From Scenedesmus sp. PABB004 (taxonomy: Eukaryota), in the NCBI GenBank assembly GCA_014905635.1, contig JABVCE010000012.1, positions 434,001 to 498,000 on the forward strand: DNA of 64,000 nucleotides, written 5' to 3'. Below, in pieces: positions 3,537-54,306 of the stretch; positions within the stretch are counted from its first letter, which is position 1, and every line of letters starts with the position of its first letter. Both the position numbers and the translations under genes were made by a program. Below the pieces are notes generated by a model. That model did not search any database. It was not told the DNA's origin and was given only the letters and a program-made list of their open reading frames with translations.

Positions 3537-4543
3537 ATGTCTGCTGCGCCGGCGGGCAAGCGGCGCGCCGGGCCGACCACGCGCGCGCGTGCGGCGGCCG
3601 CAGCAGCGGCAGGCGAGGCGCTGGCTGGGGTGGAGGCGGCGGCGAGGTGTGGGTCCGCTGCTGCTGCTGCTGGTGCTCTCTGGCTGGTGCTGCCCGGCGC
3701 CGCACGCGCCGCCCACAAGCCACCGCCGCCAGCAGCAGGCGCCGCCTGACCGCTCGCCGCCCGCCCCGCCCGCTGCGCCGCGCCGCCAGCAGCCTGTGGG
3801 GGGACCTGCCTGAGCCCCTCGTGCTCCGCGTCCTGAGCTTCCTGCCGCCGGCCCTGCGGGCGTGGGCTGCCAAGCTGGTCTGCAAGGCGGCGCGCGAGCG
3901 CTTCCGCGGCGCGACGGCCGTCTCGCTGCGCTGCCCCGAGCTGCCGCTGGAGGCGGTGCAGGCGGCGTGGCGGGCAGTGCGAGACGGGGCAAAGTGGCAG
4001 CAGCTGCGGCTGGCCAGGGCACGCGCGGCGTGCGGCGACGTGGCAGGGCTGGCCTGGCTGCGCGGCGCCGGCTGCGTCATGGGCCGCGTGTTTGACAGAG
4101 ACAGAGAGATTAATGTGGACGGCGTGTGCTGGACAGCAGCGTCGCACGGCCAACTCGCCGTGCTGGAGTGGGCGCGCGACCAGGGGCTGGACCTGGAGGG
4201 CGTGTGCCGCGGAGCAGCCTCTGGCGGGCACATGACGGTGCTGCGCTGGGCGCGCACGCAGTCGCCGCCGCTGCCCTGGACTGACGACCTCGTGTGCTGC
4301 GACGCCGCGGCGCGCGGCGACCTGGAGATGCTGCGCTGGTTGCGCACCCAAGCCCAGCCCGCGCCCTGGAGTGTCTGGACGTGCCAATATGTGGGAGCGC
4401 GTGGGCACCTGGAGGTGCTGCGCTGGCTGCGCGCCAACGGCTGCCTGTGGCGGCGCGACGCGTGCGAGCGCACGGCGGCACTCAAAGGCCATGAGGCCAT
4501 GGTCGCGTGGATCCAGGCGCAGCCCGCGACGCCGGACGACTGA
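3537..4543 (+). CDS. F-box-like/ankyrin-like repeat protein, cassette A (intact)
   Basis: Exons 3537-3646 and 3790-4543 (phase-2 GT-AG intron with CTGAC branch point). MSAAPAGKRRAGPTTRAR..., F-box-like LPEPLVLRVLSFLPP..LVCK, repeats of VCxxAAxxGxLxVLxWAR. Confidence 0.8.
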
Positions 4544-5403
4544 CTCTGACTCTGGCGGTTCCGATTAAATCAGCTCGGTTGCACTGGGATTAGGGCGAGG
4601 CGAGGCAGGCCCGTGACTGGGCACGCGTGCGTGCGGGGCGCTGCCTGCGGCATGGTGCGCGCGCGTGGCGAAGGAGAGGGAGAGGGAAGTTGGCGGCGGC
4701 GGGGCGGCGCATGCTGGCAACCGGCCGACCGCGCACGCAGCGCGCCTGGGCGGGTCGCGGTCCTGTGCCGTGCCCTAGCGGCGGCACGTCGCCGCGCCGC
4801 GCCCGCCGGGCAGCCGCGGCGCGGGGGCGGCGGTGCAGGGCCCAGGGCGCAGGCGCCCCCTTGCCCGCGCCGCCGCCGAGGAGCCCCCCCCCCCGGCTTG
4901 CGCGCCGCCCACCGCCCACAGCCGTACCTTAGCGCCCCTGCCACACACGCACACGCACGAGCGCCGGCCGCGCCGCCCACAGCTCCCGCACGCGCCGCGC
5001 GCCGCCGCCGCACCGCGCCCGCCCCCTCGCCCGCGGCGCACCCCTGGCCAGGCGGGGCGCGGACCTACGGGCGCCTGGTGACTAGCTCGTGCCGCCCAGC
5101 GCAGCGCCAGGCGAGCCGTGCGCGCGCGGGCAGGCGGTGAGCAGGCAGCGGCGGCGGGCGTGCAGCGCTGCGCGGCGCCCGCTGCGGGCGGCGGGGGTGC
5201 GCGGCGGGCGGGCGTGTGGCGTGGGCCGCCGGGCCTGCGCGCCCCGGGCGTCGCTGGCGGGCCCGCCGCCGCGCCGCCGCGCCGGGGCGGGGGCACGCGC
5301 CGCGCGCTGCTGCTGCCGCGCTCACGCCGCCCGCGCGCTCGCCCGCTGCTGCCGGTGCCCCGCCTGCTGCTCCCTGGTGGCCCGCAGGCTGCCAGGTGGA
5401 ACC

Positions 5404-6341
5404 ATGTCTGCTGCGCCGGCGAGCAAGCGGCTCGCCGGGCCGACCACGCGCGCGCAGGCGGCGGCCGCAGCGGCGGCAGGCGAGGCGCTGGCTGGGGCAG
5501 AGGCGGCGCCGAGGTGGGTCTGCTGCTGCCGCTGGTGCCCCTGGCTGCTGCTGCCTGGCGCCGCACGCGCTGCCCACGAGCCACCACCGACGGCAGCAGG
5601 CCCGGCCTGACTGCTCGCCGCCCGCCCAGCAGCCTGTGGCGGGACCTGCCCGAGCCCCTCGTGCTCCACGTCCTGAGCTTCCTGCCGCCGGCCCTGCAGG
5701 CGTGGGCTGCCAAGCTGGTCTGCAAGGCGGCGCGCGAGCGCTTTCGCAGCGCCAAGCGTGTCTCGCTGCGCTGCCCCGACCTGCCGCTGGCGGCGGCGCA
5801 GGAGGCGTGGCCGGCGGTGCAGGGTGACGGGCGGCAGCAGTCACGGCTGGCCAGGGCGCGTGCCGCGTGCGGCGACGTGGCGGGGCTGGCCTGGCTGCGC
5901 GGCGCGGGTTGCGACCTGCGCGGTGTGTGCTGGCAAGCAGCGGAGCACGGCCAGCTCGCCGTGCTGGAGTGGGCGCGCGGCGAGGGGCTGGAGCTGTGGA
6001 GCGTGTGCACGGGCGCAGCCGTGGGCGGGCACCTGGGCGTGCTGCACTGGGCGCGCGCGCAGACGCCGCCGCTGCCCTGGGGCAACGTCGTGTGCTTCTG
6101 GGCTGCGCAGCGCGGCGACGTGGAGATGCTGCGCTGGGCGCGCGCCCAGGCCGAGCCCGCGCCGTGGGATAGGGAGGTGTGCATGTTTGCGGCTGTGCAC
6201 GGGCACCTGGAGGTGCTGCGCTGGCTGCGCGCCAACGGCTGCCCGTGGTGGCGCGATTTGTGCGAGCGCACGGCGGCACGCGCGGGCCACGAGGCCGTGG
6301 TCGCGTGGATCCGGGCGCAGCCCGCGGCGCCGGACGACTGA
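5404..6341 (+). CDS. F-box-like/ankyrin-like repeat protein, cassette B (intact)
   Basis: Exons 5404-5513 and 5630-6341. Same architecture as A; ends AQPAAPDD*. Confidence 0.8.
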
Positions 6342-7213
6342 CTCTGACTCTGGCGGTTCCGATCAAATCAGCTCGGTCGCACTGGGATTAGGGCGAGGCG
6401 AGGCAGGCCGATGGCTGGGCGCGCGTGCGTGCGGGGGGGCGCTGCCTGCGGCCTGGTGCGCGCGTGCGCGTGTGGCGAGGGAGAGGGAGAGGGAAGTTGG
6501 CGGTGGGGAGGCAGCGCGTGCTGGCAACCGGCCGACTGCGCGCGCAGTGCAGCTGGGCGGGTTGCACTCCCGCGCGTCGCCCGCCGCTGGCGGTGGCGGC
6601 AGCACGTCGCCGCGCCGCGCCCGCCCGGCAGCGGCGGCACGCGGGCGGCGGCGCAGGGCGCAGGGCGCAGGCGCCGCCCGGCCGGCTGCCCGCGCCGCCG
6701 CCGAGGAGGCCCCGTGCGCGCGCCGCCCACAGCCGCCCACAGCCGCCGCCCGCAGCCCCCCTGCCACACGCACGCACAAGCACATTACACGCCGGCCGCG
6801 GCCCTCATCGCTCCTGCACGCACCGCGCCGCCGCCGCGCAGCGCCCGCCCCTGCCCGCGGCGCGCCCTGGCCAGGCGGGGCACGGCGCCTGGTGACTAGA
6901 TCGTGCCTCCCAGCGCAGCGCCAGGCGAGCCGCGCGCGCGGGCGGGCGGGGAGGGCAGCGGGGGGCGGGCAGCGCTGCGCGGCGCCCGCTGCGGGCGGCA
7001 GGGCCACCGGCGGTGCGCGGCGGGCAGGCGTGCGGCCTGGGCAGGGGAGTCTGCGCGCCCCTGGCGCCGCTGGCAGGCCCGCCGCCGCGCCGCCGCGCCG
7101 GGGCGGGGGCGGGCGCCGCCCGCTGCTGCTGCAGCGCTCACGCCGCCCGCGCGCTCGCCCGCTGCCGGCGCCGACTGCTGCTCCCTGGTGGCCCGCAGGC
7201 TGTCAGGTGGCAG

Positions 7214-8266
7214 CTGTCTGCTGCGCCGGCGGGCAAGCGGCACGCCGGGCCGACCACGGGCGCGCGGGCGGCTGCAGCGGCGGCAGCGGCAGGCGAGGCG
7301 CCTGGCGGCGCGGACGCGGCGCCGAGGTGGGTCCGTCGCTGCTGATGCTGCTGCTGGCCCACCCTGGCTGGTGCTGCCTGGCGCGGCACGCGCTGCCCAC
7401 AAGCCACCACCGCCGGCAGCGGCGGCGCCTGACCGCCGCCCGCCTGCCCGCCCCACGCGCCCGCCGCGCCCCGTGCCGCCAGCAGCCTGTGGGGGGACCT
7501 GCCCGAGCCGCTCGTGCTCCACGTCCTGAGCTTCCTGCCGCCGGCCCTGCAGGCGTGGGCTGCCAAGTTGGTCTGCAAGACGGCGCGCGAGCGCTTCCGC
7601 GGCGCCACGGTCGTCTCGCTGCGCTGCCCCGAGCTGCCGCTGGCGGCGGTGCGGGAGGCCTGGCGGCCGGTGCGGGGTGGCGATCCGTGGCAGCAGCTGC
7701 AGCTGGCCAGGGCGCGTGCGGCGTGCGGCGATGTGCCGGGGCTGGCCTGGCTGTGCGGCGCCGGCTGCGACATGCACAGTGGCGTGTGCTACGAAGCAGC
7801 GAAGCATGGCCATGTCCCTGTGCTGGAGTGGGCACGCGACCAGGGGCTGGACCTTCGGGACGTGTGCCACGACGCAGCTTATGGCGGCCAGCTGGGTGTG
7901 CTGCGCTGGGCGCGCGCGCAGACGCCGCCGGTGCCATGGGACGGCATGGAGTGCTGGCACGCTGCGGAGCGCGGCGACCTGGAGATGCTGCGCTGGGCGC
8001 GCGCCCAGGCCGAGCCCGCGCCGTGGAACAGCGAAGTGTGCTGCGTGGCCGCTGAGAACGGGCACCTGGAGGCGCTGCGCTGGCTGCGTGCCAACGGCTG
8101 CCCGTGGCAGCGCATGCAGTGCGAGGACGGGGCGTTTGTCCTTGGCCACGAGGCCGTGGTCGCGTGGATCCGAGCGCAGCCCGTGTCGCCGGACGACGGC
8201 CCTGTCTGGGACGACATCCGCAATGCCGCCATAAGAACAATGCAGTCACTCACTAACATACTCTGA
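7214..8266 (+). pseudogene. F-box-like/ankyrin-like repeat gene, cassette C; start codon ATG changed to CTG (pseudogene or non-AUG start)
   Basis: The position homologous to the ATG of other copies reads CTG TCT GCT GCG. Exons 7214-7326 and 7483-8266 are otherwise in frame, with an extended tail DDGPVWDDIRNAAIRTMQSLTNIL*. Confidence 0.6.
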
Positions 8267-8992: not shown

Positions 8993-11900
8993 GGCGCTGC
9001 TGCAGCAGCTGCGGCCGTCGCGGCGCCTGACGGCGGCGCGGCAGCGCCGGGCGCAGCAGCAGGGCGCCGCCGCCGCCGCCGCGCACTGGCCCTGGCGCGC
9101 CGCGGGCGGCGGCCAGCGCCGCCGCCGCGCGCTGCAGCAGGACGCGCCCGCCAGCGGCGCCGCGCTGCCGTTTGACATCGCCGGCGGCGTGGGCAACGCC
9201 ACCGCCGCCACGCGCAACCCGTGGTACGACTCGCACGTCCTCGCGGCCGCGGGCGGCGCCGGCGGCGGCCTGCTCTACGGCCGCCTGGACGGCGGCGGCG
9301 GCGGCGGCGCCGCGCCGCGCAGCGCCGGCGACGGCGGCGCGGCCGCCGCGGACGCCGGCGCGGGCGGCGCCGCGCCCGACCCTCCGCCGTACGAGTACCC
9401 GCCGGTCGGGCGGCACCCGACCGTGTTCTTCACCGCCGCGCTGCAGGGCTACAGCCAGGCCACCGGCCTGGGCGCCGCCGAGCAGGCGCGCGTCGCGCCC
9501 TGCGAGCGCGGCCGCGCGCACCGCGGACCCGCCGCCGGCGCCAGCGCAGCTGCCGGCGACGCCGCACGGGAGCGAGCGGGACACCCAACGCCGCGCCGCC
9601 GCCGCCGCCTGCCCGCCGCGCCGCGCCGCAGGCGGCGTTCTCCGCGGCGGTGAACGACTTCCTCGCGCCCGCCCCCGGCGCGGCGGTCAGCGCGACGGCG
9701 GTGCTCACGCAGGCGCTGTCGGGCAGCGGGCTCTGGCTCCCCGCGGCGACGGCGCTGCTGGGCGGCGACGCGGCGCTGCTGGACTACCTCGCCGCCACGC
9801 TCGCGGGCGACCCCAACCTCGTCTTCCCCACCGCGACGTGGGGCAGCGTGCGCTGCACCAACATCCGCGTCGCCGCGCCGGCGACGCCCGCGGCGCTCGC
9901 GTACGCGTGGAGCGTGGGCGACTACGGCAACTGCAGCGCGCTCTGCGGCGGCGGGCGCCAGGCGCGGCGCGTCGCGTGCCTGGACAGCCTCGGCAACGAC
10001 GCGCAGCCCTCCGCCTGCGCGCCGCCCGCGCCGCCGGCGAGCCGGTGCGCGGCCGCGGCGCCGCGCGCGCGCGTGCCACGCGCGCCGCCCGCCTGCCGCG
10101 CCGCTGGCTCACGCCCGCCTGCCCGCCCCCCCGCCCGCGCCGCAGGGCCTGCCAGACGCAGCCCTGCCAGGCGAGCCTGCCGACCGAGTTCAGCCTCGCG
10201 CTCGGCGGCTGGGGCGCGTGCAACTCGAGCTGCGGCGCAGGCAGCCGCACGCGCAGCGCGACCTGCATCTCCCGCGAGGGCTACGTCGGCTCGCTCGCGA
10301 ACTGCGCCACGACGCCGGAGGGTGCGGCCCGGCCGGCGGCACGCGCGCGCGCGCGCGCGTGCGCGGGCGGCGCCCACGCGTGCCGCGCCGCTCACGCGCC
10401 GCGCCGCCCACGCGCCCGCGCCGCTCACACACCCGCCCGCCCGGCGCCTACGCGCCCGCGCAGCGCTGGCGGCGCAGCTGTGGGAGCCCTGCCTGCTGCC
10501 GCCGTGCGCGTCGCACTTTTGGTCGTACGGCGACTGGGCCTGCAACAACACGGCGGGCTGCGGCGGCGGCGCCGCGTCGCGCGCGGCGACGTGCGTCGCC
10601 GCCGCCACGGGGCGCCCCGCCAACGCGACGAGCTGCGACGTCAACGACCTGGACAGCTCCACCAAGCCCTGCGCGATGAGCCCCTGTGCCGTCTTCTACT
10701 GGCGCACGCGCGAGCTCGCCGACTGCCTGCCAGAGGAAGCGAGCCGGCCGTGCGGGCGGGTGTGGCGCGCCGCGCGCCCGCGCCGCCGCGGCCCCGCCCT
10801 GACTGCTTGCGGCGCGCCCCTCCCTGACTGGGCCGCGGCCGCCCTCGGGCCGCCCGCCGCCGCCGCCGCGCAGTACGTCCAGCGGCGGCGCTTTGACTGC
10901 GTCAACATGACCTCCGGTGAGGTGGTGCCCTACATCTGGTGCTCCGGGCCCAAGCCGGAGCTGGGCGACGTGGAGTGCACCAGCCCCGCCAACTGCACCG
11001 CGGCCGCGCCGCCCGTGCAGCAGGCGGCCGACGGCGGCGGCGCCGACGGCGCCGACGGCGGCGGCGCGGCGCCCCAGGCGCCGGCGGCGGCGCCGCCCGC
11101 GCCCGCCGACGGCGCGGGCGGCCAGCCCGGCGGGGGTCAGACCCCAGCGCCGCCGCCGCCGTCGGCGCCGTCGGAGGGGCCGCAGCAGCCGGCCTCGAGC
11201 GGCGACGGCAGCGAGGACCTGAGCGCCGGCGTCGCCTCGGTCGCAAGCGTGGAGGGGGCCGACGACGCCGGCGCGCCGGCCACGCCGTCGCCGGCGCCAT
11301 CGCCGTCGCCGTCGCCGCCGGTCAACAGCGCCTGGGGCATCAACGGCAGCGCGCCCGCGCCCGCCGGCGGCGACGGCGGCGACGGCGACCAGCCGGCGCC
11401 GGTGCCGCTGCTGCCGGGCGCGTCTGCGCCGCTGGCGGGGGTCAACGAGACCACGCCGCCGCCGGGCGCGGCCGGGCCCGACGACGTCGCCCCGCCGACG
11501 GCCGTGCCGGGCAACGCCAGCGGCACGGGCGACGCGCACCAGCTGGGGCCGGGGCAGCTGCTGCCCGACTGGCTGCTCGCGCGGCCGACGGCCGCGCTGC
11601 AGGCGCTGCTGGACTGCCCGGCGGGCATGGCCCTGAGCGCGGACGGGCGCTGCTGCGCGGGTGCGCCGCCGCGCGCCGGCGGGCGGGCGCGCCGCCCAGC
11701 GCCGAGCGCGCGGGAGGGGGGCCTGCCGCGCCGCGCTCGCGCTCGCACACCGCGCCGCGCAACGCCCCTGAACCCTGACGCGCCCGCCGCGGCCGCAGGC
11801 GCGGCGCTGGACTTCAAGGGCGCCTGCTGCGACGCGGGTGCCGTCGACGCGTGCGGCGTCTGCAACGGCACGGGGCGGGCGATCGACGCGCTCGGCGCGT

Positions 11901-13724
11901 GCTGCAGCGGCACGCTCGACGCGCAGGGCGTGTGCTGCGGCGGCGCGATCGACGAGTGCGGCGTCTGCGACGGCGCCAACTCGTGCGATGCAAAGGCCGA
12001 CGCGCTCGGGTCGCTGCCCTCGGCGGCGCTGTTCCTCATCCCCAACTCCAACGCCAACCGCCGCCTGCGCGGCGCGATCCAGGACGCCGTCGCGGCCGCG
12101 CTCGCGCAGGCGAGCGGGCGGCCCGCCGACCGCGGCCGCGTCGGCGTCGTGCTGTCGGCGTACGCGCCGCCGGGCGGCGACGCGGGCGCGCCGGCGCAGG
12201 CCGGCGCCGACGGCGGCGTCGCCGTCGTGGCGAGCCAGTTTGGCGGCGGCGCGAGCGGCGGCGCCGGCGACGGCGGTGGCGCCTTCCCGCAGCAGCTCGA
12301 CGTCGCCGCGCCGCCGCAGCCGGCCGCGCCCGCGGCCGCGGCCGGCGGCGCGGCGCTCGGCGGCGGCGGCGCGGCGCCGGACGGGGCGCCGCCCTTGGCG
12401 CAGCCGGGCGGCACCTTTATCAGCAGCACGAGCACGCTCGCGCCGCCCGCGGCGCAGCCGGTGCAGCTCGACACGGTCAGGGGCGACGACAGCACGGCGC
12501 TGAACGTCGCGGTGCGGCAGGCGCCCAACGCCGCGCCTGGAGGCGTGCCCGGCAGCGCCTGGTACCTGGCCGAGCGTGCCGGGCGCCGCCTGGCGGGGCG
12601 CGTCGCGGGCGGGCTGCGGCGCCTGGCGGCCGCGGCGGCCGCGCCGCCGCCCGTGCCGTCGACGCTGGCCGCGCCGACCAACGGCACGGCGGCGGCCGCG
12701 GCGGCGCCGGCCGGCGCTGGCGGCGCAGCCGCGGCGGCGCCCGGCGGCCCCGCGCCGGTGGCGCCCGCCAGCCCCGCGCCCGCCAGCCCCACGCCGGCGC
12801 CGGCGGCCAGCCCCGCGCCGGCGACGCCCGTGGCGGCGCAGCTGTCCGGCGACGCGACGCCCGCGACGAGCAGCAACACCGTCGTGGTCGGCGTCACGCT
12901 GCACAGCGCCCCGGGGCAGCCCGGGCCCAACACGGGGCTCGTGCTGCTCGCGCTGAGCCGGCTGCTGGGCGAGCCGCTGCCCGTGCCCGGCAGCCGGAGC
13001 AAGCTGACGCTGCGCGAGGTGGTGTCGGTCGTGCGCGCGGGCACGTGCGGCGACGGCGTGTGCCAGGTGCGCGGCGGCGCGCGGCGCGTGCGGCGGCGGC
13101 GGGGGTCGCGCCGCGGCGGCGCCGGCGCCGGCGGCCCGCGCGCCGATCGCCGCCGCGCCGCGCTCCGCTTCCCGGCCTCCCTGCCGGCCTCCCTGCCCCT
13201 CCCACGCCGCCCGCCGCCCGCCCGCGCGGCCCGCGCAGGTCAACGAGCGCGTGTCGTGGAACAACCCGGACAGCTGCCCCGCCGACTGCGCGCTGCCGTT
13301 CCTATCGTGCCCGCCGTTCAACGCGAGCGGCGCGGCGTGCGCGGGGCGCGGCGTGTGCTTCAACTCCATCGGCGCCTGCTCCTGCGCGACCGGCTACACC
13401 GGCGCCGACTGCTCCATGTGCGCGCTCGACTACAAGCTGGTCAACTCGTTCTGCGTCGCCGCGGCGGCGCTCGCGCCGCGGTCGGCCTGCGCCGGCGCGA
13501 GCTGCGCGGGCGGGACGGCGGTGCTGACAGTGACCAAGAGCCTCGCCGAGCTCGGCGCGCAGCGCAGCCTCGCCGGCGGCGCCGCGGCGGTCGCGTGCGT
13601 GACGCTCGGCAGCCTCGCCGCCGTCGCCGGCGCGGCGCTGCTCGTGCGCCGCGCGCGCCACCGCCACCTGCTGCGCGAGTACGAGGCGCAGGTGCAGAGC
13701 AAGGCCGCCGAGTGCCAGGCGTGA
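8713..13724 (+). CDS. Multi-exon type I membrane/cell-surface protein: signal peptide, thrombospondin type-1 repeats, Pro-rich linkers, Cys-rich repeats, EGF-like domain, transmembrane helix
   Basis: Signal-like AAALAVLLLALAAG. TSP1-like AWSVGDYGNCSALCGGGRQARRVAC, WGACNSSCGAGSRTRSATC and WSYGDWACNNTAGCGGG. DACGVCNG/DECGVCDG repeats. EGF-like CAGRGVCFNSIGACSCATGYTGADC. Hydrophobic helix followed by RRARHRH. Confidence 0.75.
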
Positions 13725-14132
13725 CATGTGGGCAGCTGGGGGAGAGCCGGGGCGCCTGCGCGGGGGCGCGATGCACATACAACATCGGAACCGGGGGCGC
13801 CGGAAACGCGCGGCCGGCGACGGTGTTTGACCGCTGCCGCACCGCCCGCACGCGCCGCCCCTGCCCGCGCCGCCGAGCGCGGAGCAAGCCTGTGGCTTCG
13901 GACGGCCAACGCGGCGTGCGCTGGGGCGGCGCGGGCGCCCGGGAATGCGGGGCGCTCGTGCGGGCGTCGCGCAGCGGGGTTTTGGCAGCGGCGCTCGCCC
14001 CGCTCGGGGCCCCCTCCGCGACGCACGCCAGAGCTGTCGCACCACAAACGCCCACGCCCAGCGAGAAAGCGAGCCTCCTGAGCCCGCTCGACACCCCCCG
14101 AACTCGCTCCGCGCAACCCTTTGCCCGGCGCC

Positions 14133-14816
14133 ATGGCGGACATGGGCCTGAAGTACGACCTCGACGTCGCGGAGCGCGGCGTGGAGGAGGGCAACCCGGA
14201 GGCCCTCGCGCACCTGGTCGACCCCGGGCGCGCCGGCATCCCGGTGCGTGCGGCGGCCCCTGGGCGTGCTGGATGCGCCGGGCGGCCGCGCGGCGTCTAT
14301 GTATGCCGACGTGGTCGGGCCGCGCGCCGCTGCGGGGCCGCGGCGGGCCGGGGGCGGTGGCTATCGATGCGGCATCTACGCCCGCGCTGGCCGCCGCGGC
14401 ACCGCGCCTTCCGTGTCGTGCGCGCGACCCGACGCCTCTCACGTGACGCCCGATATCACCGAGACCGAGCGTGGCGCGCTGCGCGACGCGCGCCGACCGC
14501 CTCGCCGCCGCTGCCCCGCAGGAGGCGCAGGAGGCCCACGCCTTTGCGACAACCTCCGAGGTCGATCCCCCGCTCGAGGTAGGGGCTGGCTGACGCGGTG
14601 GCCACGACAGCCGGGCTGGGCGGGCTGTGGGTGCGAGGCGCCCGTCCGGCTGCGCGTGCGCCAACGGCTGCGCCGTCGCCCGCCGCCCCCCGCGCGCCCC
14701 TCCGCTCCGCCCGCCCGCAGCTGATGGGCAACCACCACCAGCGCGACCGGGTGGGGCTGCGCGCCGCTGTTGCGTCGGACGCCGGGCACGCCGCGCGCCA
14801 CGCGGCCGCCCGTTGA
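14133..14816 (+). CDS. Small hypothetical protein (multi-exon)
   Basis: Coding-like exons 14133-14243 (MADMGLKYDLDVAERGVEEGNPEALAHLVDPGRAGIP), 14522-14578 and 14721-14816, flanked by GT/AG. Internal exon structure uncertain. Confidence 0.5.
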
Positions 14817-16052: not shown

Positions 16053-16338
16053 TCCCCGGGGCTCGTGGGCCGCCTGTGACGGAGTGGAGCAGCTGCAGCT
16101 GCCCGCGGCGCGCAGCTGCTGCCGGCACCGCCGCTGCTGCTCGCGCGCAATTCCGCCCCGACAGGGCTCGGGGAAGAGGCGTGAGACTGAGCGGAGCGCC
16201 CGGATGCCCGCCGGGCGCCGCCGAGGGGCCGTGCGCTTCGGGGCGGGCGCTGGAGCAACCGCGGCGGTTCGGCACCGACTGGCGCGGAGCGGCTGCGTGC
16301 TCACGGGCGTGTGGACCAACGCGGTCTGTCACCCAACC

Positions 16339-16552
16339 GCGTCGCAGCACGGCCGCCCCCCGCGGCACCAGCAGCAGCTCGCGCAGGCGGCGGCCGCAGG
16401 CGCCGGCGCGCGGTCGCAGCGGCCGGCGGCCGTGGCGGGCGCAGGCGTGGCGACGGCGCCAGGGAGTGCTCGGCGCCGGTCGTGAGCGACGGCTGCAGCC
16501 ACGCGGGCGGCCGCGCGCCGCGAGCGACGCCTCGACCAGGCGCCGCTCAGGC
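16339..16552 (+). repeat. Diverged inverted copy of a segment of the importin-like gene (36252-36483)
   Basis: [18 protein letters not shown]...[18 protein letters not shown] aligns with [18 protein letters not shown]...GDDASMCSASIVSDSSH, with a frame change in this copy. Confidence 0.7.
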
Positions 16553-41477: not shown

Positions 41478-44421
41478 GTGGAGCAGCGTCCCGGGACCTT
41501 CTCGCCCCGCGGCGAGCGTGGCAGCTTTGGGCTGGACGGCGGCGAGGGCAAGGGCCGCAAGCAGCGCGCCGCGAGGGGGCTGGCCGCCGGCCTCGGCCGG
41601 CTGCGGCGGCCCAGCCCCCTCGCGGCGGGCGCGGCGCTGGTGGTGGGCCTGCTGCTGCTGGTGGTGCTGGCGGCGCTCGCCGCGGTGCGGGGGCGGCCAA
41701 AGGTGCGGGCAGCGGCGGCTCGCGCGGCGGCGGCCAGCTCAGCGACGGCGCCAGCGAGCAGCGGCGGGCGCGACGGGCGGCCGCGGCTGGGCGCCAAGCG
41801 AGCCCGCACGCCGCAGATCGACCCGCGGCTGTCGGCGTCGCTGCCCGACGCGCCGGACGAGTGCTCCGCGGCGCTGCGCAGCAAGATCGCCTGGGGCGTG
41901 GCCACGTCGGCGTACCAGGTGCGCCGCGGCGCCCGCCCGCCCGCGTGCCCGCGCCCCGCCGCGCCCCCTCGCCGCGCCGCCGCGCACCACGTCGCCGCCG
42001 CCGCCGCCGCCACGCGCAGGTCGAGGGCGCCGCGTCGGAGGGCGGGCGCAGCCCGAGCATCTGGGACGCCTTCTCGGCGCGCCCCGGCGCCGTCGCGGGC
42101 AACGCGACCGGGTCGGTCGCGGCGGACCACTACCATCACTTCCGGGACGACATCCGCTTGATGGTCGCGCTCGGCGTCAAGCACTACAGGCGCGGCGGCG
42201 GCCGCGGCGGCGGCGGCGGCAGGGTGAAGGGTTGAGGGGGGGGGGGTCGGCGCCGAGGGTTTTGGGGGCGTGGCGGCAGCGGCGGTTGCGTGAGCTGCGG
42301 GTGTCGGCGGCGGCGCGCCCACGCGCCGCGCGCCGCCGCGCGCCGCCGCGCGCCGCCGCGCGGCAGGCTGTCGCTGTCGTGGACCCGCGTGCTGCCGGGC
42401 GCGGGGCGCGGCAGCGAGCCGAGCGGCGCTGGGCTGCGCTTCTACCGCCGCCTGCTGCGCGAGCTGCACGCCGCCGGCATCACGCCCGTCGTCACGCTCT
42501 GCCACATGGACCTGCCGCAGGCGCTGCAGGCGCGCGCCGCCCGCGCCGCCACCCGCGCCGCCACCCGCGCCGCCACCCGCGCCGCCCGCGCCGACACCCG
42601 CGCGCCGGCACCCGCCCGCCTCCCCCCTGCGCCCTCCTCCCCTCCCCGCTGCGCCCCATGCCCCGCCCCTGCGCCCCGCGCCGCCCTCCGCTCCCCGCTT
42701 GCAGGACGCGTACGGCGGCGCGCTGGACCCGCAGCTCGCAGACGACTTCCTGTACTATGCGGATACTGTCTTTGCGGCGCTCGGGGGCTATGTGAAGCAC
42801 TGGCTCACCTTCAGCGAGCCCATGGCGATGTGCCAGCTCGGCTACGGCGTCGGCGCGTACGCGCCGGGGCTCGCGCGCGGCGCGGCGGGGCAGTATGCGT
42901 GCGGGCACGCGCTGCTGCTCGCGCACGGCCGCGCGGCGCAGCTCTACCGGCAGAAGTACGGCCAGGCGCAGGGCGGGCGCGTGAGCATCGCGCTCGCCGC
43001 GCACTGGGGGCTGCCCTACGACCCCGCCAGCACGGCGGGTGCGCGCCGCCGCCGCACGCTGCGCGCCGCGCGCCGCGCGCCTCGCTTGCCCCTCGCTTGC
43101 CTGCCCGTCCCTCTCCGCCGCGTGCGACACCGCCTCCGCGCCGGCGCGAATCAACGCTCACAAACACACGCCGCCCGCCGCCGCCGCGGCGTCGTGCCCC
43201 AGACGTCAACGCGACCGAGCTCTACATGACCTTCCAGCTCGGGTGGCTCGCCGACCCGCTGTTCTTCGGCGACTACCCCGAGGCCATGCGGCGCAGCCAG
43301 CCGTCCCTGCCGCGGCTCAAGCCGTCCGAGCGGGCGTTGCTCACGGGCAGCGTCGACTTTGTGGCCATCAACTACTACACCAGCCACTTTGTGCGCGCGC
43401 CGCCGCCGGGCGCGCCGCGCGACCAGGTGCGCGCCGGCGCGGCAGAGGCGCGGCGGCGGCGCGGCGCGCGGGGCGCGCGGCGCGGCGGGCCCGCCGCCGC
43501 CGGCCACCGGCCGCGCCGACCCCGCGCCCCGCTCGCTGGCGCACGTTGCGACGCACGCGCCGCCACGCGCGCCAGCTGTACGAGGAGTCGCTGACGGACC
43601 ACGCCGGCGCGTACCCGGGGCCGCCGAGCGACACGTTCTGGCAGTTCACCGCCCCGGGCGGCCTGCGGTCGACGCTCGCGTGGATTGGGCGGCGCTACCA
43701 GCGCCCCGAGGTGTGGGTGACAGAGAACGGCGTCGCGTCGCCGGGCGAGGGCCGGCTGGAGCGGCGCGACGCGCTCAAGGACCGGCACCGCCTCGACTTT
43801 TACCGGTGCGGGCTCGTGTCTGTGCGGGCGCGCGGGCGCGTGTGTGCGTGCGTGTGTTGGGAGGGGATGACCGGCACGCCTCGCGCGCCCAGCCCACGCG
43901 CCGCCGCCCGCCCCCTCCGCCGCGCGCCCCCGCGCGCCAGGTCGAGCCTCGACGCGCTGTGCGCGGCGGTCACGCGCGACAACGCCAACCTGGCGGCCTA
44001 CTTTGCGTGGAGCCTGCTCGACGGCTTTGAGTGGTCCGACGGCTACGGCCCGCGCTACGGCCTCGTGCTCGTCGACCGGGCGAGCCCCCGCCTGGCGCGC
44101 TACCCCAAGCTCTCGGCCTACTGGCTCGCCACGCACTTCTTCAGGTGCGTGTTTTGTGGGTGTTTTAGACAGAGAGAATGTGCGTGTGTGTGCGTGTGTG
44201 TGTGTGGGTGTGTGTGTGGGTGTGTGGGTGTGGGTGTGGGTGTGGGTGTGGGTGGGGCGGGGGAGGGCGCGGCGCAGCTGCACGGGGCAGGCGGCGCTGC
44301 GCGGCGGCGCGACGCGCGGACGCCGCGCCGTCCGCGCCGCAGGTACGCGCCGGACAGCATCGCGTGCCTGGAGATCCGCAGCTGCCGCGCGCAGCGCAGC
44401 TCGCTGCTGCCCGTGCGGTAG
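41478..44421 (+). CDS. Glycoside hydrolase family 1 (beta-glucosidase-like) with N-terminal transmembrane anchor; start uncertain
   Basis: [78 protein letters not shown] across multiple exons. Hydrophobic [18 protein letters not shown] upstream. The given start is a candidate GTG. Confidence 0.85.
44179..44252. repeat. (GT)n/(GGGTGT)n intronic microsatellite
   Basis: Direct reading. A similar (GT/GA) tract lies at about 49649-49712 and a poly-G run at about 40720-40749. Confidence 0.85.
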
Positions 44422-45167: not shown

Positions 45168-46149
45168 ATGTCTGCTGCGCCGGCGGGCAAGCGGCGCGAG
45201 GCGGCGGCGCGCGGCGAGGAGGCGAGGTGGGCGCGCAGCCGTTGGCCAGGCGGGCGCTGAGCACGGGCCAGCAGCCGCAGCGCGCGCCGCCCCACCGCTG
45301 GCCCGCCGCCGTGCCCCCCCCCCCCCCAGCAGCCCGCCGCCGGACCTGCCCGAGCCGCTCGTGCTGCACGTCCTGGGCTTCCTGCCGCCGGCCCTGCGGG
45401 CGTGGACCGCCAGGCTGGTGTGCAAGGCGGCGCGCGAGCGCTTCCGCGGCGCCACGGTCGTCTCGCTGCGCTGCCCCGAGCTGCCGCTGGCGGCGGTGCA
45501 GGAGGCGTGGCGGGCGGTGCAGGGTGCCGGGTTAACCCTGCAGCGGCCGCAGCTGATCGGGGCGCGCGCGGCGTGCGGCGACGTGGCGGGGCTGGCCTGG
45601 CTGCACTGGGCCGGCTGCGGCATGGGCGGCGTGTGCTTGCAAGCAGCGGAGCACGGCCAGCTCGCCGTGCTGGAGTGGGCGCGCGGCGAAGGGCTGGACC
45701 TAAAGGAAGTTTGCAAAGCAGCAGCATGGCACGGGCAGCTCGCCGTGCTGGAGTGGGCGCGCGACCAGGGGCTGGACCTGCGGGACGTGTGCTGGGCAGC
45801 AGCCGGGGGCGGGCACCTGGATGTGCTGCACTGGGCGCGCGCGCAGGCGCCGCCGCTGCCGTGGGGCGACAACGTGTGCTCCTGGGCTGCACGGCGCGGC
45901 GACCTTGAGATGCTGCGCTGGGCGCGCGCCCAGGCCGAGCCCGCGCCGTGGGGCGAGCACGTGTGCTGCGTGGCGGCTCAGTTTGGGCAGCTGGAGGTGC
46001 TGCGCTGGCTGCGCGCACACGGCTGCCCCTGGTGGCGCGGCGAGTGCGAGCGCAAGGCGGCACTCTACGGCCGCGTGGCCGTGGTCGCGTGGGTCCGGGC
46101 GCAGCCCGCGTCGCCGGACGATGGCCCTATCGTTGGCTTTTTTGGCTGA
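45168..46149 (+). CDS. F-box-like/ankyrin-like repeat protein, cassette H (intact, one extra repeat)
   Basis: Exons 45168-45226 and 45330-46149. Two consecutive GQLAVLEWAR repeats; tail DDGPIVGFFG*. Confidence 0.8.
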
Positions 46150-47014: not shown

Positions 47015-47995
47015 ATGGCCTCGCTGATAGAGCATTCGCTCAGCTGTCTGACGCTGGAGGGCGCACCGAGGTGCGTGTGCTGCTGATGTTGACGCCCCTA
47101 GCCGGCACCCCTGGCTGTTTTGAGCCTGGGCGCGCGGCACTGGCGACGAGGCGAGGTGTTGCCCCATGGCTGCTGCTGCCTGGCGCTGCACGTGCTGCCC
47201 GCAAGCCACCGCCGCCGGCAGCAGGCGCCGCCTGACCGCTCGCCCTGCCCGCCCTGCTCGCCCCGCACGCCCGCCGCGCCCGCCCGCGCCGCCAGCAGCC
47301 CGCTGCCAGAGCTGCCCGAGCCGCTCGTGCTGCACGTCCTGAGCTTCCTGCCACCGGCCCTGCAGGCGTGGGCTGCCAAGCTGGTCTGCAGGGTGGCGCG
47401 TGAGCGCTTCCGTGGCGCCACGGTCGTCTCGCTGCGCTGCCCCGAGCTGCCGCTGGCGGCGGTGCAGGAGGCCTGGCGGGCGGTGGGGATTGATGAGGAG
47501 CAGCAGCGCCAGCTGTCAGCGGCGCGCGCGGCATCCGCCGACGTGGCGGGGCTGGCCTGGCTGCGCGGCGCCGGCTGCGACATGTGGGCCGCATGCTCGG
47601 CAGCAGCGGAGCACGGCCACCTCGCCGTGCTGGAGTGGGCGCGCGACCAGGGGCTCGACCCAGGGGACGTGTGCTGGGCAGCAGCTCAGGGCGGGCGGCT
47701 GGATGTGCTGCGCTGGGCGCGCGCGCAGGCGCCGCCGCTGCCGTGGGGCGACAACGTGTGCTCCTGGGCTGCGCAGCACGGCGACCTGGAGATGCTGCGC
47801 TGGGCGCGCGCCCAGGCCGAGCCCGCGCCGTGGGACCGGGACGTGTGCTGGCGGGCGGCTGAGTACGGGCAGCTGGAGGCGCTGCGCTGGCTGCGCGCAA
47901 ACGGCTGCCCCTGGTGGCGCGGCGAGTGCGAGTTCCTGGCAGCCAGCAACAGCCACCAGGCCGTGGTCGTGTGGATCCGGGCACAGCCTGAGTGA
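47015..47995 (+). CDS. F-box-like/ankyrin-like repeat protein, cassette I (intact, alternative exon 1)
   Basis: Exons 47015-47070 (MASLIEHSLSCLTLEGAP) and 47296-47995. Confidence 0.8.
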
Positions 47996-48626: not shown

Positions 48627-51192
48627 TCAGGCCGCGGGCTTGCGGGCAAGGAAGAAGAACAGCGGCGTGAAGGTGCCTGGCGCGCGGCGGGCGCAGCGCG
48701 CGGCGCGGCGCACCGGCGTGAGCAGCGCGGCGGCCCGTGCGCCGCCCGCGGCAGCGGCGGCGCGGCCACGGCGCGCGCGGGGCGGGGCGGCCCGCCGCGC
48801 CGCCGCGCCGCCGCACCGGTCTTGCCGCCGGCGACGAGGCCGTCCGCCGCGCGCTCGAGCATGCTCGCGACCTCGAGGCTGCCCTTGGGCGCGAGGCCGA
48901 GGCGCTCCAGCGCCTTGACCATCACGTGCGTCACCCGCCGGCCCAGCTTGGTCGTGCGGAAGTCTGGCGGGCACAGGGAGGGCGGCGGGCGGCGCGCGCG
49001 GCGCGGCGGCACGTCGGCCGGCGCGGGTGCGGCAGCGCGGCGGCTCGCCGCCGGCGCGGCGGCCGCTTCGCGCGGCGGCGGCGGGCACGGTGGCTCGCGC
49101 GGCGCCCGGCCTCACTCTGCAGCCGCGTCCAGTTGTCGGGGTCGACCGGGTCCCACCAGGGGATGTCGGCGGTCGTCGCGAGGTCGCAGCTGTCCAGCAG
49201 CTCAAAGCCCGCCGCCTTCAGCGCCTCCAGCGTCTGCGCCGTCGTCCTGCGGCGGCGCGCCCGCGGCGTCGGCGGCGCGGGTCGCTCGGCGGCGCGCCCC
49301 TGCCGCCGCGCCCGCCACCCGCGCCCCGCCCCCCGCTGCAGGCCGCCCGTCCGCCTCTCACCCTCCCCGCCTCGCGCACCCCCCCCCCTCCCTACCCCCT
49401 GCAGCTGCTTCCTCTGTCCCCCGCACACGCGACCACAACACTACTCCACCACACCACTACTCCGCACGCACCGCACGTCGGGCAGGCCGTTGCCGAGCTC
49501 AATCTCGGCCATAATGCTCCGGTGCGCCGCGTTGCCCGGGTCGTACGCGTCCGTCGCGCACCACTCGTACCCGGCAAAGCACTGCCCCGGCTTGAGCACG
49601 CGCAGGATCTCCTTGTAGCACCCCACCTGCGCGCGCGCGCGTGAGCTTTGTGTGAGCTTTGTGTGTGAGTGTGAGTGTGTGTGTGTGTGAGTGTGAGTGT
49701 GTGTGTGTGTGTGGGGGGGGGGGACCAACGCGGCCGCGGCGCGCACCTGGTCGGGCGCGTGGCACGTCGCGTCGATCTGCGGCGACGCGCGGCGGCGGCG
49801 CGGGCGTCGGCGCGCCGCCGCTGCGCACGCTCCCGCGCGCGCTCCCGCGCCGCAGCGCCCGCGCGGCGCCCGCGCCGCCGCCGCCGCCGCCGCCGCGCCG
49901 TGCCTGGTAGACTGCGTCGAAGCTCCCGTCCTCAAAGGGCATGGCCATGAAGTCGGCCTTGACAAACTTGGACAGCCCGTCGAGGCTGCGCCCCGTGCGG
50001 CCGTTGTGGTAGAGCGCGCGGCTGATCTGGTACGCGTTGTTGTTCACGCCTGGGCGGAGGCGGCGCGGCGGGGGGCGCGAGCCCGGTGCGGCGTGACGCG
50101 GCGGGGGCGTGGCGGGCGCGGCGGGCACCGGCCGGCGGCCGGCGGCCGCGGCGCGCGCTCGTGCAGCGCGCGCGCTCGTGCGGGGCACCGAACAGCTGCG
50201 GCGCGCCGCGCACCCGTGACGTGCGCGCCCGAGAACAGCGCGATCTCGCGCAGCGGCCCGCCGATGCCGCAGCCGACGTCGAGGCACGTGTCGCCTGGCG
50301 CACGACCGCGGCGCGACGCGGCGGCGGAGGGCGCGCGGCGGCGTCAGAGGCGGCGGCGGCGGCGGCGGCGGCGGCGCCGCCAGCTGCCGGCCCCGGCGCC
50401 GCGCCGCGCCGCTGCGGCCGGTGCGGCCAGCCCCACGGCGGCGGCGCCGCACCAGGCTTGAGGCCGAGGCGCAGCGCGAGGTAGTGCTCGTGGCGGCGGA
50501 TGCTCTCCACGTGGCTCTCGTGCTTCAGGCGGTGCGCAAAATGGAACGACGTGCCCCACCCTGCGCGCCGCACCCGCGCCGCCGCCGGCGCGGGGCGCGC
50601 GTGGGCCGCCGCACCTGCCGCCAGCGGCCGTGCGCGCTGTGCGAGCGCACGCCCCGGCTGCGCCGCCGCCGCGCTCACCGTACTCGTAGAAGCTCGTGGC
50701 CAGGTCGTAGTACTTGTTGACCATGTCGGCGTACTGCTTCTTGCGCGCCTCCACATCGCCGCCGTGCGTGGTGTGGTATTTCTGCGCGCGCGGGCGCGCG
50801 GCGGCAGCGGCGGCGGCACGGCGGGTGGCGCCGCTGCGCGCGGCGCGCCTGGCGAGCCCGGGGCTTGCGCGGCCCTCTGTCCTCGCCACGACGCGCTGCC
50901 GCTGGCCCCGTCCCGGCGGCGCGCCAGGCGCGTGGGCGACGCTGATGGCGCGGCGCGCCCTCCCCCCTCCATCGCCGCGCTGGCGCCGCCAGCGACCGCA
51001 GGCGCGGGCCGTCGTGGACGGCGCCGCTGCGGGCTGGGCGTATCGGCATCGCCGGGCGCCCCGCGGGGCCTGTGGCGCGCGAGCGGGTTGGGGCTGACCC
51101 GCGCGCACCTCGTAGGAGTCGATGGAGTCGGCGATTCTGTCAGCCGACTGGCTGCTGATGTTGGGCGTGAGCATGGCCGCCGGCGTCGTCAT
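48627..51192 (-). CDS. SMT1: Sterol C24-methyltransferase (cycloartenol SMT / ERG6 family)
   Basis: [94 protein letters not shown]. Multi-exon. Confidence 0.95.
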
Positions 51193-51660
51193 GGCGGCGC
51201 GCGGGCGCGCGGTGCGCGCGGTGCTGATGGCGCGCGGCGGCCAGGCGCGGCCTGGTGCACTGGACGCCGGGGGCGCGGCGTCGCTGGGAGCAGTGAAGGG
51301 AGAGCTCGTGTGCTGGCGCGCGGGCGCCGAGGAGGCGCAGCAGCGCGAGCGCGCCGCGCGCTGCGGGGGCGTCGCGAGCACCGCTGAAGCCCGGCGGTTG
51401 CCGCCGCGCGGCGCGGCGCGGTCCTTCGTAGCAAGGCTGCTGGCGCCGAGTCAGACTGCGCCCGGGACTCACGCGCCCACGGTGCCGTGGCCGTCGCCCC
51501 CCGTCTTGCCAGCGGACGCCGCCGCCGCGCGAGCAGCGAGCGCGCAGCGATTTGAAAGGAGAGCTGCGACGGGGCAGCGTCGCAGGCCGAGCTAGGGCGC
51601 ATTTCGTGCGCTGGGACCGCAGGCAGTCGCGCCAGCGCACGAGCAACACAGCGGCACACC

Positions 51661-52941: not shown

Positions 52942-52962
52942 CCTCTGGCCGGGTTAAGGGGC

Positions 52963-53220
52963 GGGCTGACCCGCGCGCACCTCGTAGGAGTCGATGGAGT
53001 CGGCGATTCTGTCAGCCGACTGGCTGCTGATGTTGGGCGTGAGCATGGCCGCCGGCGTCGTCATGGCGGCGCGGGGGCGCGCGGTGGGCGCGGTGCTGAT
53101 GGCGCGCGGCGGCCAGGCGCGCTGGTGCACTGGACGCCGGGGGCGCGGCGTCGCTGAGAGTGGTGCGGGGGAGCGGGGGCGCTGGCGCGCGGGCGCCGAA
53201 AAGGCGCAGCAGCGCGAGGG
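52963..53220 (-). repeat. Direct duplicate of sterol methyltransferase exon 1 with its donor site and 5' flank (copy of about 51091-51350)
   Basis: The coding part MTTPAAMLTPNISSQSADRIADSIDSYE and the GT donor are identical (53064-52981 versus 51192-51109). The upstream flank has diverged. Confidence 0.9.
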
Positions 53221-53296
53221 GCGGGCCGCGAGGGGCTGTGGAGCGGGGAGGGCGGGCCCCCCGCGGCCGCAGCTGTCCTTTCAAATCACGTCGAGT

Positions 53297-54306
53297 TCAA
53301 AAATCAAACAAATAATCAAGTCCAGGGCCGTCGTCTGCCGCCGCGGGCTGCGCCCGGATCCACGCGACCACGACCTCGTGCCCGCTGCGTGCCGCCGCGT
53401 ACTCGCACTCGCCGCGCCACCACGGGCAGCCGTTGGCGCGCAGCCAGCGCAGCGCCTCCAGGTGCCCGTGCGCTGCCGCCCCCCTGCACGCGCTCTTGCC
53501 CCACGGCGCGGGCTCGGCCTGGGCGCGCGCCCAGCGCAGCATCTCCAGGTCGCCGCGCTGAGCAGCGTAGTAGCAAACCCCATAATCTGAGCCACCCCAC
53601 GTCAGCGGCGGCGCCTGCGCGCGCGCCCAGCGCAGCACACCCAGCTGGCCGACCATGGATGCGTCCTCGCACACGCGCTCCAGGTCCAGCCCCTGGTCGC
53701 GCGCCCACTCCAGCACGGCGAGCTGGCCGTGCTCCGCTGCAGCGTAGCACACGCCGCCCATGCCGCAGCCGGCGCCGCGCAGCCAGGCCAGCCCCGCCAC
53801 GTCGCCGCACGCGCCGCGCGCGCTGGCCAGCCGCAGCTGCTGCCAGGTTGCCCCGTGTCGCGCCGCCCACCAGGCCTCCTGGACCGCCGCGAGCGGCAGC
53901 TCGGGGCAGCGCACCGAGACGACCGTGGCGCCGCGGAAGCGCTCGCGCGCGGCCTTGCAGACCAGCCTGGCGGCCCACGCCTGCAGGGCCGGCGGCAGGA
54001 AGCTCAGGACGTGGAGCACGAGGGGCTCGGGCAGCTCCGGCAGCAGGGCGCTGGCTCGGCGGGGCGGGCGGGGCGGCGGGGCGGGCGGCGAGCGGTCAGG
54101 CGGCGCTGCTGCCGGCGGTGGCGGCTTGTGGGCAGCGCATGCGGCGCCAGGCAGAAGCAGCAGCCAGCGGGCACCAGCAGCAGCCAGCGGACCCACCTCG
54201 GCGCCGCCTCCGCGCAGCCGGGCGCGTCGCCTGCGGCGGCTCCGGCCGCGGCGCGCGCGCGCGTGGTCGGCCCGGCGCGCCGCTTGCCCGCCGGCGCAGC
54301 AGACAT
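53297..54306 (-). CDS. F-box-like/ankyrin-like repeat protein, cassette J (intact); cassette extends to about 54883
   Basis: Exons 54306-54197 and 54050-53297; tail DDGPGLDYLFDF*. Boundary motif at 54857-54883. Confidence 0.8.

Follow-up and report, generated by a model that had tools for sequence, protein, structure and literature searches.

This study concerns a cluster of ankyrin-repeat genes in a 64,000-nt stretch of the green alga Scenedesmus sp. PABB004 (GenBank assembly GCA_014905635.1, contig JABVCE010000012.1, positions 434,001 to 498,000 of the forward strand), which is referred to below as the window and whose first base is position 1 of all coordinates. Self-BLAST of the window reports ten copies (A to J) of a 1.6–1.9-kb unit with ~72–86% identity, which probably constitute a local, lineage-specific F-box-ankyrin family in a very GC-rich green alga. 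The best explanation, to which we assign a probability of about 0.68, is that the cluster encodes F-box-ankyrin substrate receptors whose hypervariable slots are diversified by selection together with in-register interlocus gene conversion.

An earlier sequence-only reading of this stretch had described the ankyrin repeats as a patchwork of near-invariant framework, hypervariable slots, and modules shared between different pairs of copies. It had attributed this patchwork to repeat-by-repeat recombination or gene conversion plus diversifying selection on the binding surface, as in a natural library of designed ankyrin repeat proteins (DARPins). The ten copies and all motifs that it quoted were found where it had placed them. 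The eukaryotic, two-exon nature of the genes, the F-box-like motif, the four defective copies, and the expansion of related genes in giant viruses lie beyond what it had seen.

Framework, hypervariable slots, and selection

Repeats are anchored on a conserved Cys, taken as position 0. By repeat register, 40 columns are assigned to slots and 164 columns of the ankyrin part to the framework, the slot register having been picked after the alignment had been seen. Positions 0, +3 and +4 (Ala-Ala), +7 (Gly), and the helix-2 pattern L-x-V-L-x-W-x-R are invariant or nearly so, whereas positions −3 to −1 (the loop before helix 1), +1, +2, +5, and +6 carry 4–8 different residues among the ten copies. 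Distinct residues per column amount to 4.33 for slots (n = 36) and 1.68 for framework (n = 124; Mann-Whitney p = 2e-14), and invariant columns number 3 of 36 and 64 of 124, respectively. The claimed division into constant framework and variable slots is thus borne out, with the framework motif GDVAGLAWL present in nine copies. Slots are also more AT-rich, as had been noticed, since their G+C content is lower at all three codon positions (0.70, 0.46, and 0.85 at first, second, and third positions versus 0.80, 0.63, and 0.90 in the framework).

The same pattern is found in sequences from elsewhere. Three paralogues encoded outside the window, which were not used for slot definition, have identities of 23–36% at slots and 73–81% at framework columns. 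In 560 ankyrin repeats from 68 giant-virus loci, for which positions 0, +3, +4, +7, and +14 are fixed by the search pattern, the six positions with the highest entropy are −2, +2, +5, +1, −3, and +6 (3.0–3.9 bits), with the remaining unconditioned positions at ≤2.6 bits. According to predicted secondary structure, the slots comprise the end of the loop, the first turn of helix 1, and the two residues that close this helix. At 100 degrees per residue, positions −2, +1, +2, +5, and +6 fall within a 140-degree arc, with 0, +3, +4, and +7 opposite. Given this helical periodicity, the slots should form one exposed stripe on the inner helix by the loop, which is the canonical ankyrin binding face.

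Regarding substitution rates, Nei-Gojobori (NG86) counts over 36 pairs, with copy E left out, give nonsynonymous (dN) and synonymous (dS) distances of 0.76 and 0.39 for slots, 0.10 and 0.19 for framework, and 0.15 and 0.19 for the F-box-like motif and linker. The resulting slot dN/dS is 1.94 (1.27–2.85 by bootstrap over codons), the ratio of slot dN to framework dS has a bootstrap interval of 2.6–5.7, and the ratio of the proportions of nonsynonymous and synonymous differences (pN/pS) in slots exceeds 1 in 34 of the 36 pairs. Slot dN is ~3–4 times the intron or framework synonymous divergence. Codon models were fitted in IQ-TREE with a likelihood-ratio test (LRT) of slot omega against omega = 1. 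The MG+F3X4 model, which has the best likelihood among them (−954.7), estimates slot omega at 2.41 (twice the log-likelihood difference, 2dlnL, 12.3) and framework omega at 0.41. The respective values are 2.51 (2dlnL 17.3) and 0.47 for GY+F1X4, and 1.46 (2dlnL 2.4, not significant) and 0.33 for GY+F3X4. Slot omega is therefore above 1 by every estimator and significantly so in two of the three tests.

These values show that the scaffold residues, namely Cys0, Ala+3, Ala+4, Gly+7, and those of helix 2, are under purifying selection, and that the loop before helix 1 and positions +1, +2, +5, and +6 change faster than synonymous or intron sites. As for the diversifying selection proposed by the earlier reading, the weight of evidence favours positive selection of this kind on the slots.

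Exchange of short tracts between copies

Sharing among the copies is discordant beyond chance according to three kinds of test. The pairwise homoplasy index (PHI) was computed over 686 ungapped exon-2 columns of nine copies with 145 informative sites, of which 54% of pairs are incompatible. At w = 10, none of 5000 permutations is at or below the observed value (p < 0.0002), and p equals 0.0006 at w = 20 and 0.82 at w = 40. Significance at short range only means that compatibility extends over less than ~100 nt, which corresponds to blocks of about one repeat.

A GENECONV-style permutation test (288 variable sites, 2000 permutations) reports five pairwise fragments at global p < 0.05. The strongest is the A–G run in repeat 4, which spans 28 consecutive polymorphic sites (p < 0.0005), followed by linker fragments in G–H (0.0005), C–G (0.002), and C–H (0.0475), and a fragment in the 3′ half of B–F (0.0165). 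The A–G run is exact over 58 nt (4356–4413 versus 33634–33577), so the block described earlier is real and slightly longer than the ~48 nt claimed for it. Its flanks match at 67 of 88 and 73 of 91 positions (76% and 80%), and within the block the other copies match A at 32–40 of 58 positions (55–69%). Copies B and F, which had been called near-identical except for repeat 1, indeed have exact runs of 224, 124, and 72 nt and differ in repeat 1, where B is nearest to H (94%).

Maximum-likelihood trees of eight segments disagree. The approximately unbiased (AU) test rejects the concatenated tree in three of the eight, namely F-box plus linker (p = 0.0012), repeat 3 (0.008), and repeat 4 (3.5e-7). 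The earlier reading had named a single tree fitting all segments as the result that would speak against recombination or gene conversion; such a tree is not obtained, and the proposed exchange gains support. Copy A illustrates the mosaic, since its nearest neighbour is F in the upstream region, C or B in the F-box, J in the linker, H in repeat 1, C in repeat 3, G in repeat 4 (96%, with the runner-up at 72%), and F or B in repeat 5. The shared motifs listed by the sequence-only reading have the distribution that it reported. WSVWTCQYV is confined to A and G, and GMECW to C and G. Two copies carry WGDNVCSWAA (H and I) and two RRAMCE (D and G); three carry WWRGECE (H, I, and J), three RSAKRV (B, D, and F), and three WTARLVCK (D, G, and H). 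The C–E sharing of SGVC..AA.HGHVPVL and the extra repeat of H are visible in the alignment.

Inspection of 930 repeat pairs, made without a formal test, yields no convincing case of out-of-register sharing, with the best candidate matching at 23 of 27 nt. Mean identity is 55% for cross-register and 71% for same-register pairs. Defective copies also take part in the sharing (C–G in the linker and repeat 3, D–G in repeat 5). Taken together, these data show that the paralogues, defective ones included, swap short in-register tracts of about one repeat or less. The exchange would have come about by interlocus gene conversion or by unequal crossing-over, in copies that once formed a tandem array.

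Gene anatomy, protein family, and neighbouring genes

The multiple alignment predicts one layout for all units, in which a conserved non-coding stretch is followed by an ATG, a short exon 1, an intron, and exon 2. The candidate intron is 103–156 nt long and of GT-AG type, with donors like GAG/GTGGGT (the slash marks the exon end) and a CAG acceptor, and exon 1 ends in phase 2 in every copy. Exon 2 codes for an F-box-like motif, a linker, and six ankyrin repeats of 26–29 amino acids; copy H has seven, the additional one being repeat-1-like. The N-terminal motif, LPEPLVLHVLSFLPP...KLVCKAARERF, is legible directly in exon 2. Exon 1 has two forms. Eight copies start with MSAAPAGKR..., and the remaining two, G and I, with MAS..EHSLS...; this split is a further discordant character. 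The outside paralogue P0001 starts like G and I (MAS/MSA...SLS.L.L).

The conserved region upstream of the ATG measures ~600–660 nt (4816–5403, plus strand, in the example of copy B, as delimited by the unit alignment) and is found in nine of the ten units, with A having part of it only. Its variable sites have no 3-base periodicity (p = 0.65–0.92) and no frame is stop-free in all copies, and it is taken as non-coding. Its mean pairwise distance (K) equals 0.13 versus 0.22 for the intron, 0.37 for the 3′ flank, and a framework dS of 0.19. This low divergence could reflect homogenisation that is unopposed here, or constraint on a promoter or 5′ untranslated region.

As for the protein family, a search with copy B returns 20 proteins at E ≤ 0.001 among 3726 candidates. 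The top four are hypothetical proteins of Scenedesmus sp. PABB004 with 59–73% identity. They are encoded outside the window, as tblastn identity to the window is ≤75%, and are thus additional paralogues. The Ank_4 profile scores 37.9 bits in B, 42.2 in C, 25.5 in G, and 41.2 in H against a cutoff of 22.7, and lies above the Pfam cutoff in all 26 members of a family alignment that comprises copies from the window, paralogues from outside it, and relatives from metagenomes. The AlphaFold2 model of exon 2 of copy B, the reference for the structure model, has a mean predicted local distance difference test (pLDDT) value of 84.8 and exceeds 90 over the repeats, which form six helix pairs. Its best Foldseek matches are designed ankyrin proteins, the ankyrin domains of Espin and GLP, and FEM1B, an E3 substrate receptor; matches to ankyrin domains have a probability of 1.00 and template-modelling (TM) scores of 0.5–0.6. 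A sequence search of solved structures gives a weak Espin match only (E = 0.0026). With profile matches, model, and Foldseek in agreement, the ankyrin assignment is firm, and the presence of designed ankyrin proteins among the best structural matches makes the DARPin analogy of the earlier reading a fair one.

The F-box assignment is probable. In the same 26 members, the F-box-like profile is found in 18 and the F-box profile in 12 (PF12937/PF00646), at the same N-terminal place (residues 3–41), and among the four copies B, C, G, and H an F-box is found in one at E ≤ 0.01. Three helices are predicted in the motif (residues 8–16, 20–29, and 32–40). Docking of this motif to SKP1 is putative.

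Six of the ten copies (A, B, G, H, I, and J) are predicted to be intact, with open spliced frames from the conserved ATG, donor, and acceptor, and four (C, D, E, and F) are defective. A, B, and C lie head to tail, as do H and I, and the minus strand carries D, E, F, G, and J. Partial sequence of a next unit is found not only behind the tandem copies but also behind F and G. The limits given to the array by the earlier reading, 3790 and 54050, coincide exactly with the first base of exon 2 in A and in J, respectively.

Among the intact copies on the plus strand, A (3537–4543) consists of exon 1 at 3537–3646, an intron at 3647–3789 with the donor GAG/GTGTGG at 3647, and exon 2 at 3790–4543; it carries a long insertion in the repeat-1 loop, and its repeat-4 slot block is identical to that of G. 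Copy B (5404–6341) has exon 1 at 5404–5513, an intron at 5514–5629, and exon 2 at 5630–6341, and is near-identical to F from the linker onward save for repeat 1, which in B is H-like. Copy H (45168–46149) has exon 1 at 45168–45226, an intron at 45227–45329, and exon 2 at 45330–46149. Copy I (47015–47995; exon 1 47015–47070, of the second type, and exon 2 47296–47995) is in frame if the upstream in-phase donor GAG/GTGCGT at 47071 is used. On the minus strand, G (33447–34355) has an exon 1 of the second type, MASAVEHSLSG..., at 34355–34294, an intron at 34293–34162, and exon 2 at 34161–33447, and J (53297–54306) has exon 1 at 54306–54197, an intron at 54196–54051, and exon 2 at 54050–53297.

Regarding the defective copies, C (7215–8266, plus strand) has lost its start, as a 1-nt deletion takes the A of the ATG and no in-frame ATG is found back to the stop at 6893; the intron lies at 7327–7482 and exon 2 (7483–8266) is open. 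Copy C has repeat 3 (GMECW) and the linker in common with G and repeat 1 in common with E. The other three are on the minus strand. Pseudogene D (18223–19200; ATG at 19200, intron 19090–18943, exon 2 from 18942) is frameshifted in repeat 2 by a 1-nt deletion near 18524/18523. Pseudogene E (25497–26132, ATG at 26132) has a partly deleted F-box and a second deletion from repeat 2 to the C-terminal helix, which changes the frame. In F (29934–30914; ATG at 30914, exon 2 30663–29934), one extra base in exon 1 (111 nt) puts the spliced reading out of frame, so that the copy is in frame only unspliced, as an open reading frame (ORF) of 326 codons.

The window as a whole has ~80% G+C, with 0.77–0.83 in each 2-kb bin, so that open frames are plentiful in all six frames and of little meaning by themselves. 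The neighbouring ORFs with profile matches are as follows. An E2 ubiquitin-conjugating enzyme (UQ_con, E = 1.7e-13) is encoded at 15920–17662 on the plus strand and sits ~560 nt from the 3′ end of copy D; the position of an E2 gene beside putative E3 adaptors may be a coincidence. Thrombospondin type-1 repeats (TSP1_ADAMTS, E = 1.5e-13), unusual in a green alga, are found in a 1741-codon ORF at 9221–14443 (plus strand). A short-chain dehydrogenase (39284–41215, minus strand) and a family-1 glycosyl hydrolase (GH1; 43039–44418) lie between ankyrin copies. The ORF at 2–2164 (plus strand) has Baculo_PEP_C and Apolipoprotein matches, both sub-threshold, which are probably due to low-complexity or coiled-coil sequence in a GC-rich frame. 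A 270-nt direct duplication (51091–51358 and 52963–53230, 92.6% identity) has no relation to the ankyrin units.

Relatives, rival explanations, and significance

Giant viruses have an expansion of this repeat type. Relatives are encoded by 122 viral stretches (68 loci kept) with 31–48% identity, many of them on contigs of 0.59–2.47 Mb, and the viral repeat is of a ~29-amino-acid subtype, ...GCPW-xx-xC-xx-AA-xx-GHLEVLxWxRxxGCPW. Algal and viral genes have in common this subtype, many clustered paralogues per genome, the six most variable positions, and, in at least some viral genes, an N-terminal F-box-like motif; the viral genes differ in being intron-free and only 31–48% identical to the algal proteins. 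Viral F-box proteins are usually thought to redirect the host ubiquitin system. One viral contig, IMGVR_UViG_2974549713_000001 (589 kb), carries more than 20 related ankyrin genes at ~274–466 kb (loci L002, L004, L005, L010, and others). Beside the viral ankyrin gene of L004, an ORF at 2267–3286 (plus strand) has an N-terminus that looks F-box-like by eye, MEFPPEVWTVILEY...SVCRMF, and may continue into leucine-rich repeats. PMC5995976 reports tandem duplications of ankyrin, MORN, and F-box proteins in Pandoraviridae.

In comparison with DARPin libraries, the algal family shares the fold and the principle by which a consensus scaffold is held constant and each repeat is diversified at a few places on its surface. 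In the DARPins of Binz et al. from 2003, beta-turn positions and positions 13/14 were reportedly randomised, and we equate these randomised positions with the slots in the loop before helix 1 and those at +5/+6, two slot groups out of three. DARPins keep His and Leu fixed at the places equivalent to +1 and +2, whereas in the algal family +1 and +2 vary as well. The algal library is also natural, its repeats have 26–29 rather than 33 amino acids, and its diversity comes from mutation and gene conversion instead of synthesis. Another known system is the S-locus F-box (SLF) clusters, in which many linked F-box paralogues together make up a recognition repertoire and are subject to gene conversion or genetic exchange. 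Unlike the algal genes, SLF genes function in a mating system, are expressed in pollen, and encode binding domains of the FBA type; nothing ties the cluster of the alga to mating.

Among described phenomena, the nearest is found in the repeats of fungal nucleotide-binding, leucine-rich-repeat-like (NLR) proteins of the STAND class, which serve in non-self recognition, as in the HNWD family of Podospora. PMC4986451 describes concerted evolution of their ANK, TPR, and WD repeats, with repeats exchanged both inside one gene and among family members, and positive selection at a few positions of the concave face, which in ankyrin repeats map to the inner helices and the loop. Both systems combine a near-invariant scaffold with few hypervariable positions per repeat, repeat exchange, and a fast-diversifying repertoire. 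In the fungal proteins, however, the repeats are preceded by a NACHT or NB-ARC NTPase together with an effector domain, whereas the algal ones follow an F-box-like motif. Fungal repeats are also highly alike within a gene and vary in number, whereas algal repeats are distinct from one another, fixed at six (seven in H), and exchanged in register between paralogues. As for nematode and plant F-box families, PMC8120010, citing Thomas 2006, reports that the F-box evolves under purifying selection and the substrate-binding domain under positive selection. These families likewise have an F-box followed by a variable binding domain and are large, clustered, lineage-specific, and rich in pseudogenes. 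Their binding domains are FTH/FBA, Kelch, or leucine-rich repeats and not ankyrin, and the algal F-box match is sub-threshold. A search limited to an open-access library found no description of a module-by-module mosaic in nematode or plant F-box families, and none of a hypervariable mosaic F-box-ankyrin family in green algae.

According to the preferred explanation, each protein would act as a substrate receptor of an SCF-type (SKP1–cullin–F-box) cullin-RING ubiquitin ligase. The F-box-like three-helix motif at the N-terminus would dock SKP1, and the six-repeat ankyrin solenoid would bind the substrate by its concave face. Paralogues would exchange short in-register tracts via interlocus gene conversion or unequal crossing-over, making every gene a mosaic of binding modules. 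Selection would retain and reshuffle variants of the binding surface, so that the repertoire could recognise many or fast-changing targets, most likely proteins of giant viruses or other parasites, and the defective copies would represent birth-and-death turnover.

Several observations weigh against this explanation. The surface placement of slots comes from predicted helices. Every F-box match is below the Pfam gathering score (18.9 bits versus 24.3 for copy B), with the best E-values being 5e-4 and 1.2e-4, and the N-terminal F-box and linker part of the model has low confidence (pLDDT 41–66). Slot dS is based on ~24 synonymous sites in each pair, a tree length of 9–11 substitutions per codon places slot codons close to saturation, and recombination breaks the single-tree assumption of the codon-model fits. 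Regarding exchange, global p < 0.05 is attained by only 5 of the 30 top-scoring shared fragments listed, the named H–I, D–G, and C–E blocks are not individually significant in the GENECONV-style test, and the AU test keeps the concatenated tree in five of the eight segments (upstream, p = 0.32; exon 1 plus intron, 0.31; R0R1, 0.56; R2, 0.19; R5C, 0.51). Finally, as 4 of the 10 copies are defective, a fraction of the library yields no full-length protein.

The last point, together with the GY+F3X4 test, which fails to reject omega = 1 in slots, would also be expected if constraint were merely relaxed, that is, if slots drifted neutrally, the framework were purified and homogenised, and the mosaic were a by-product of no adaptive value. 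A conserved scaffold with a variable surface is moreover a feature of all ankyrin families, and giant-virus repeats show the same profile. We nevertheless consider relaxed constraint unlikely, since all point estimates of slot omega exceed 1, two better- or equally-parameterised tests reject omega = 1, and slot dN (0.76) is 3–6 times the intron, upstream, and framework-synonymous divergence. In addition, tracts that homogenise the framework ~20 nt away should homogenise neutral slots too. A different source of variation would be programmed diversification, in which expressed copies receive repeat modules from silent or defective ones by templated gene conversion within the life of a clone, as happens in antigenic variation and in receptor systems with pseudogene templates. 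The tracts are indeed short and in register, and the defective copies C, D, and E have blocks in common with intact ones. However, the upstream homologue is present in all ten units (partially in A), the ATG in nine (not in C), and GT-AG-type splice signals in all ten (in I via the upstream in-phase donor), so there is no sign of one expression site with silent donors. Neither a recombinase nor a deaminase is found among the neighbouring ORFs scanned, and non-coding distances of 0.13–0.37 between copies point to an evolutionary rather than somatic time-scale, which makes this the least probable of the readings considered.

The mosaic might also be an assembly artefact, a chimeric consensus of mis-joined reads from ~80% identical paralogues, as both a multicopy family and an extreme-GC genome invite such errors. 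Yet the copies differ by ~14–28% over 1.1–3 kb and have unique genes between them, which is easy for long-read assemblers, the frames of six copies are intact across all block boundaries, and annotated PABB004 paralogues elsewhere have the same slot and framework pattern; an artefact is barely credible. That the cluster is an endogenous nucleocytovirus element rather than a set of the alga's own genes is very improbable as well. The architecture of F-box plus short "GCPW" ankyrin repeats is expanded on giant-virus contigs, and look-alike clusters in the atlas come from Chlorophyta and Nucleocytoviricota, which is a lead only. The uniform G+C of the window (0.77–0.83), in contrast, resembles the 78.5% that PMC12571836 reports for the PABB004 genome (39.8 Mb, 7,092 genes). 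The candidate GT-AG introns are conserved, the ORFs between copies match cellular families, and no viral hallmark gene is present among the 24 other ORFs scanned. Judging by host-like G+C, candidate introns, and cellular neighbour ORFs, the genes of the algal cluster are not viral and the likeness is one of repeat-type kinship; an ancient transfer between alga and virus could have occurred in either direction.

Under the preferred reading of selected and converted F-box-ankyrin receptors, a more specific and still doubtful possibility is a mirrored arms race, in which green algae and their giant viruses both field growing repertoires of one F-box-ankyrin receptor type. The host set would resemble innate immunity, its ubiquitin-ligase adaptors tagging viral proteins or competing with the viral adaptors for SKP1. 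Short-tract conversion, with defective copies as an additional reservoir, would recombine binding modules into new specificities and so outpace point mutation.

Nothing in the cluster is mechanistically unprecedented: this style of receptor evolution is already known from fungal NLR proteins and from nematode and plant F-box families, and what is new is its F-box-ankyrin setting in a green alga. If the preferred explanation is true, green algae own a repertoire of ubiquitin-ligase adaptors on an ankyrin scaffold. Its diversification would involve two steps that are likewise seen in plant resistance genes, nematode F-box genes, and the repeats of fungal NLR proteins, with a fixed framework carrying selected surface slots and gene conversion shuffling the modules. 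With ten genes in 50 kb, the cluster would be a compact and tractable natural example of evolving binding specificity. The naturally varied slots include two helix-1 positions that designed libraries fix, which may help protein engineers. The massive expansion of the repeat type in giant viruses suggests that algae and their large DNA viruses contend over the ubiquitin system, and the clean anatomy of the cluster, combined with its giant-virus kinship, provides a testable host-virus angle.

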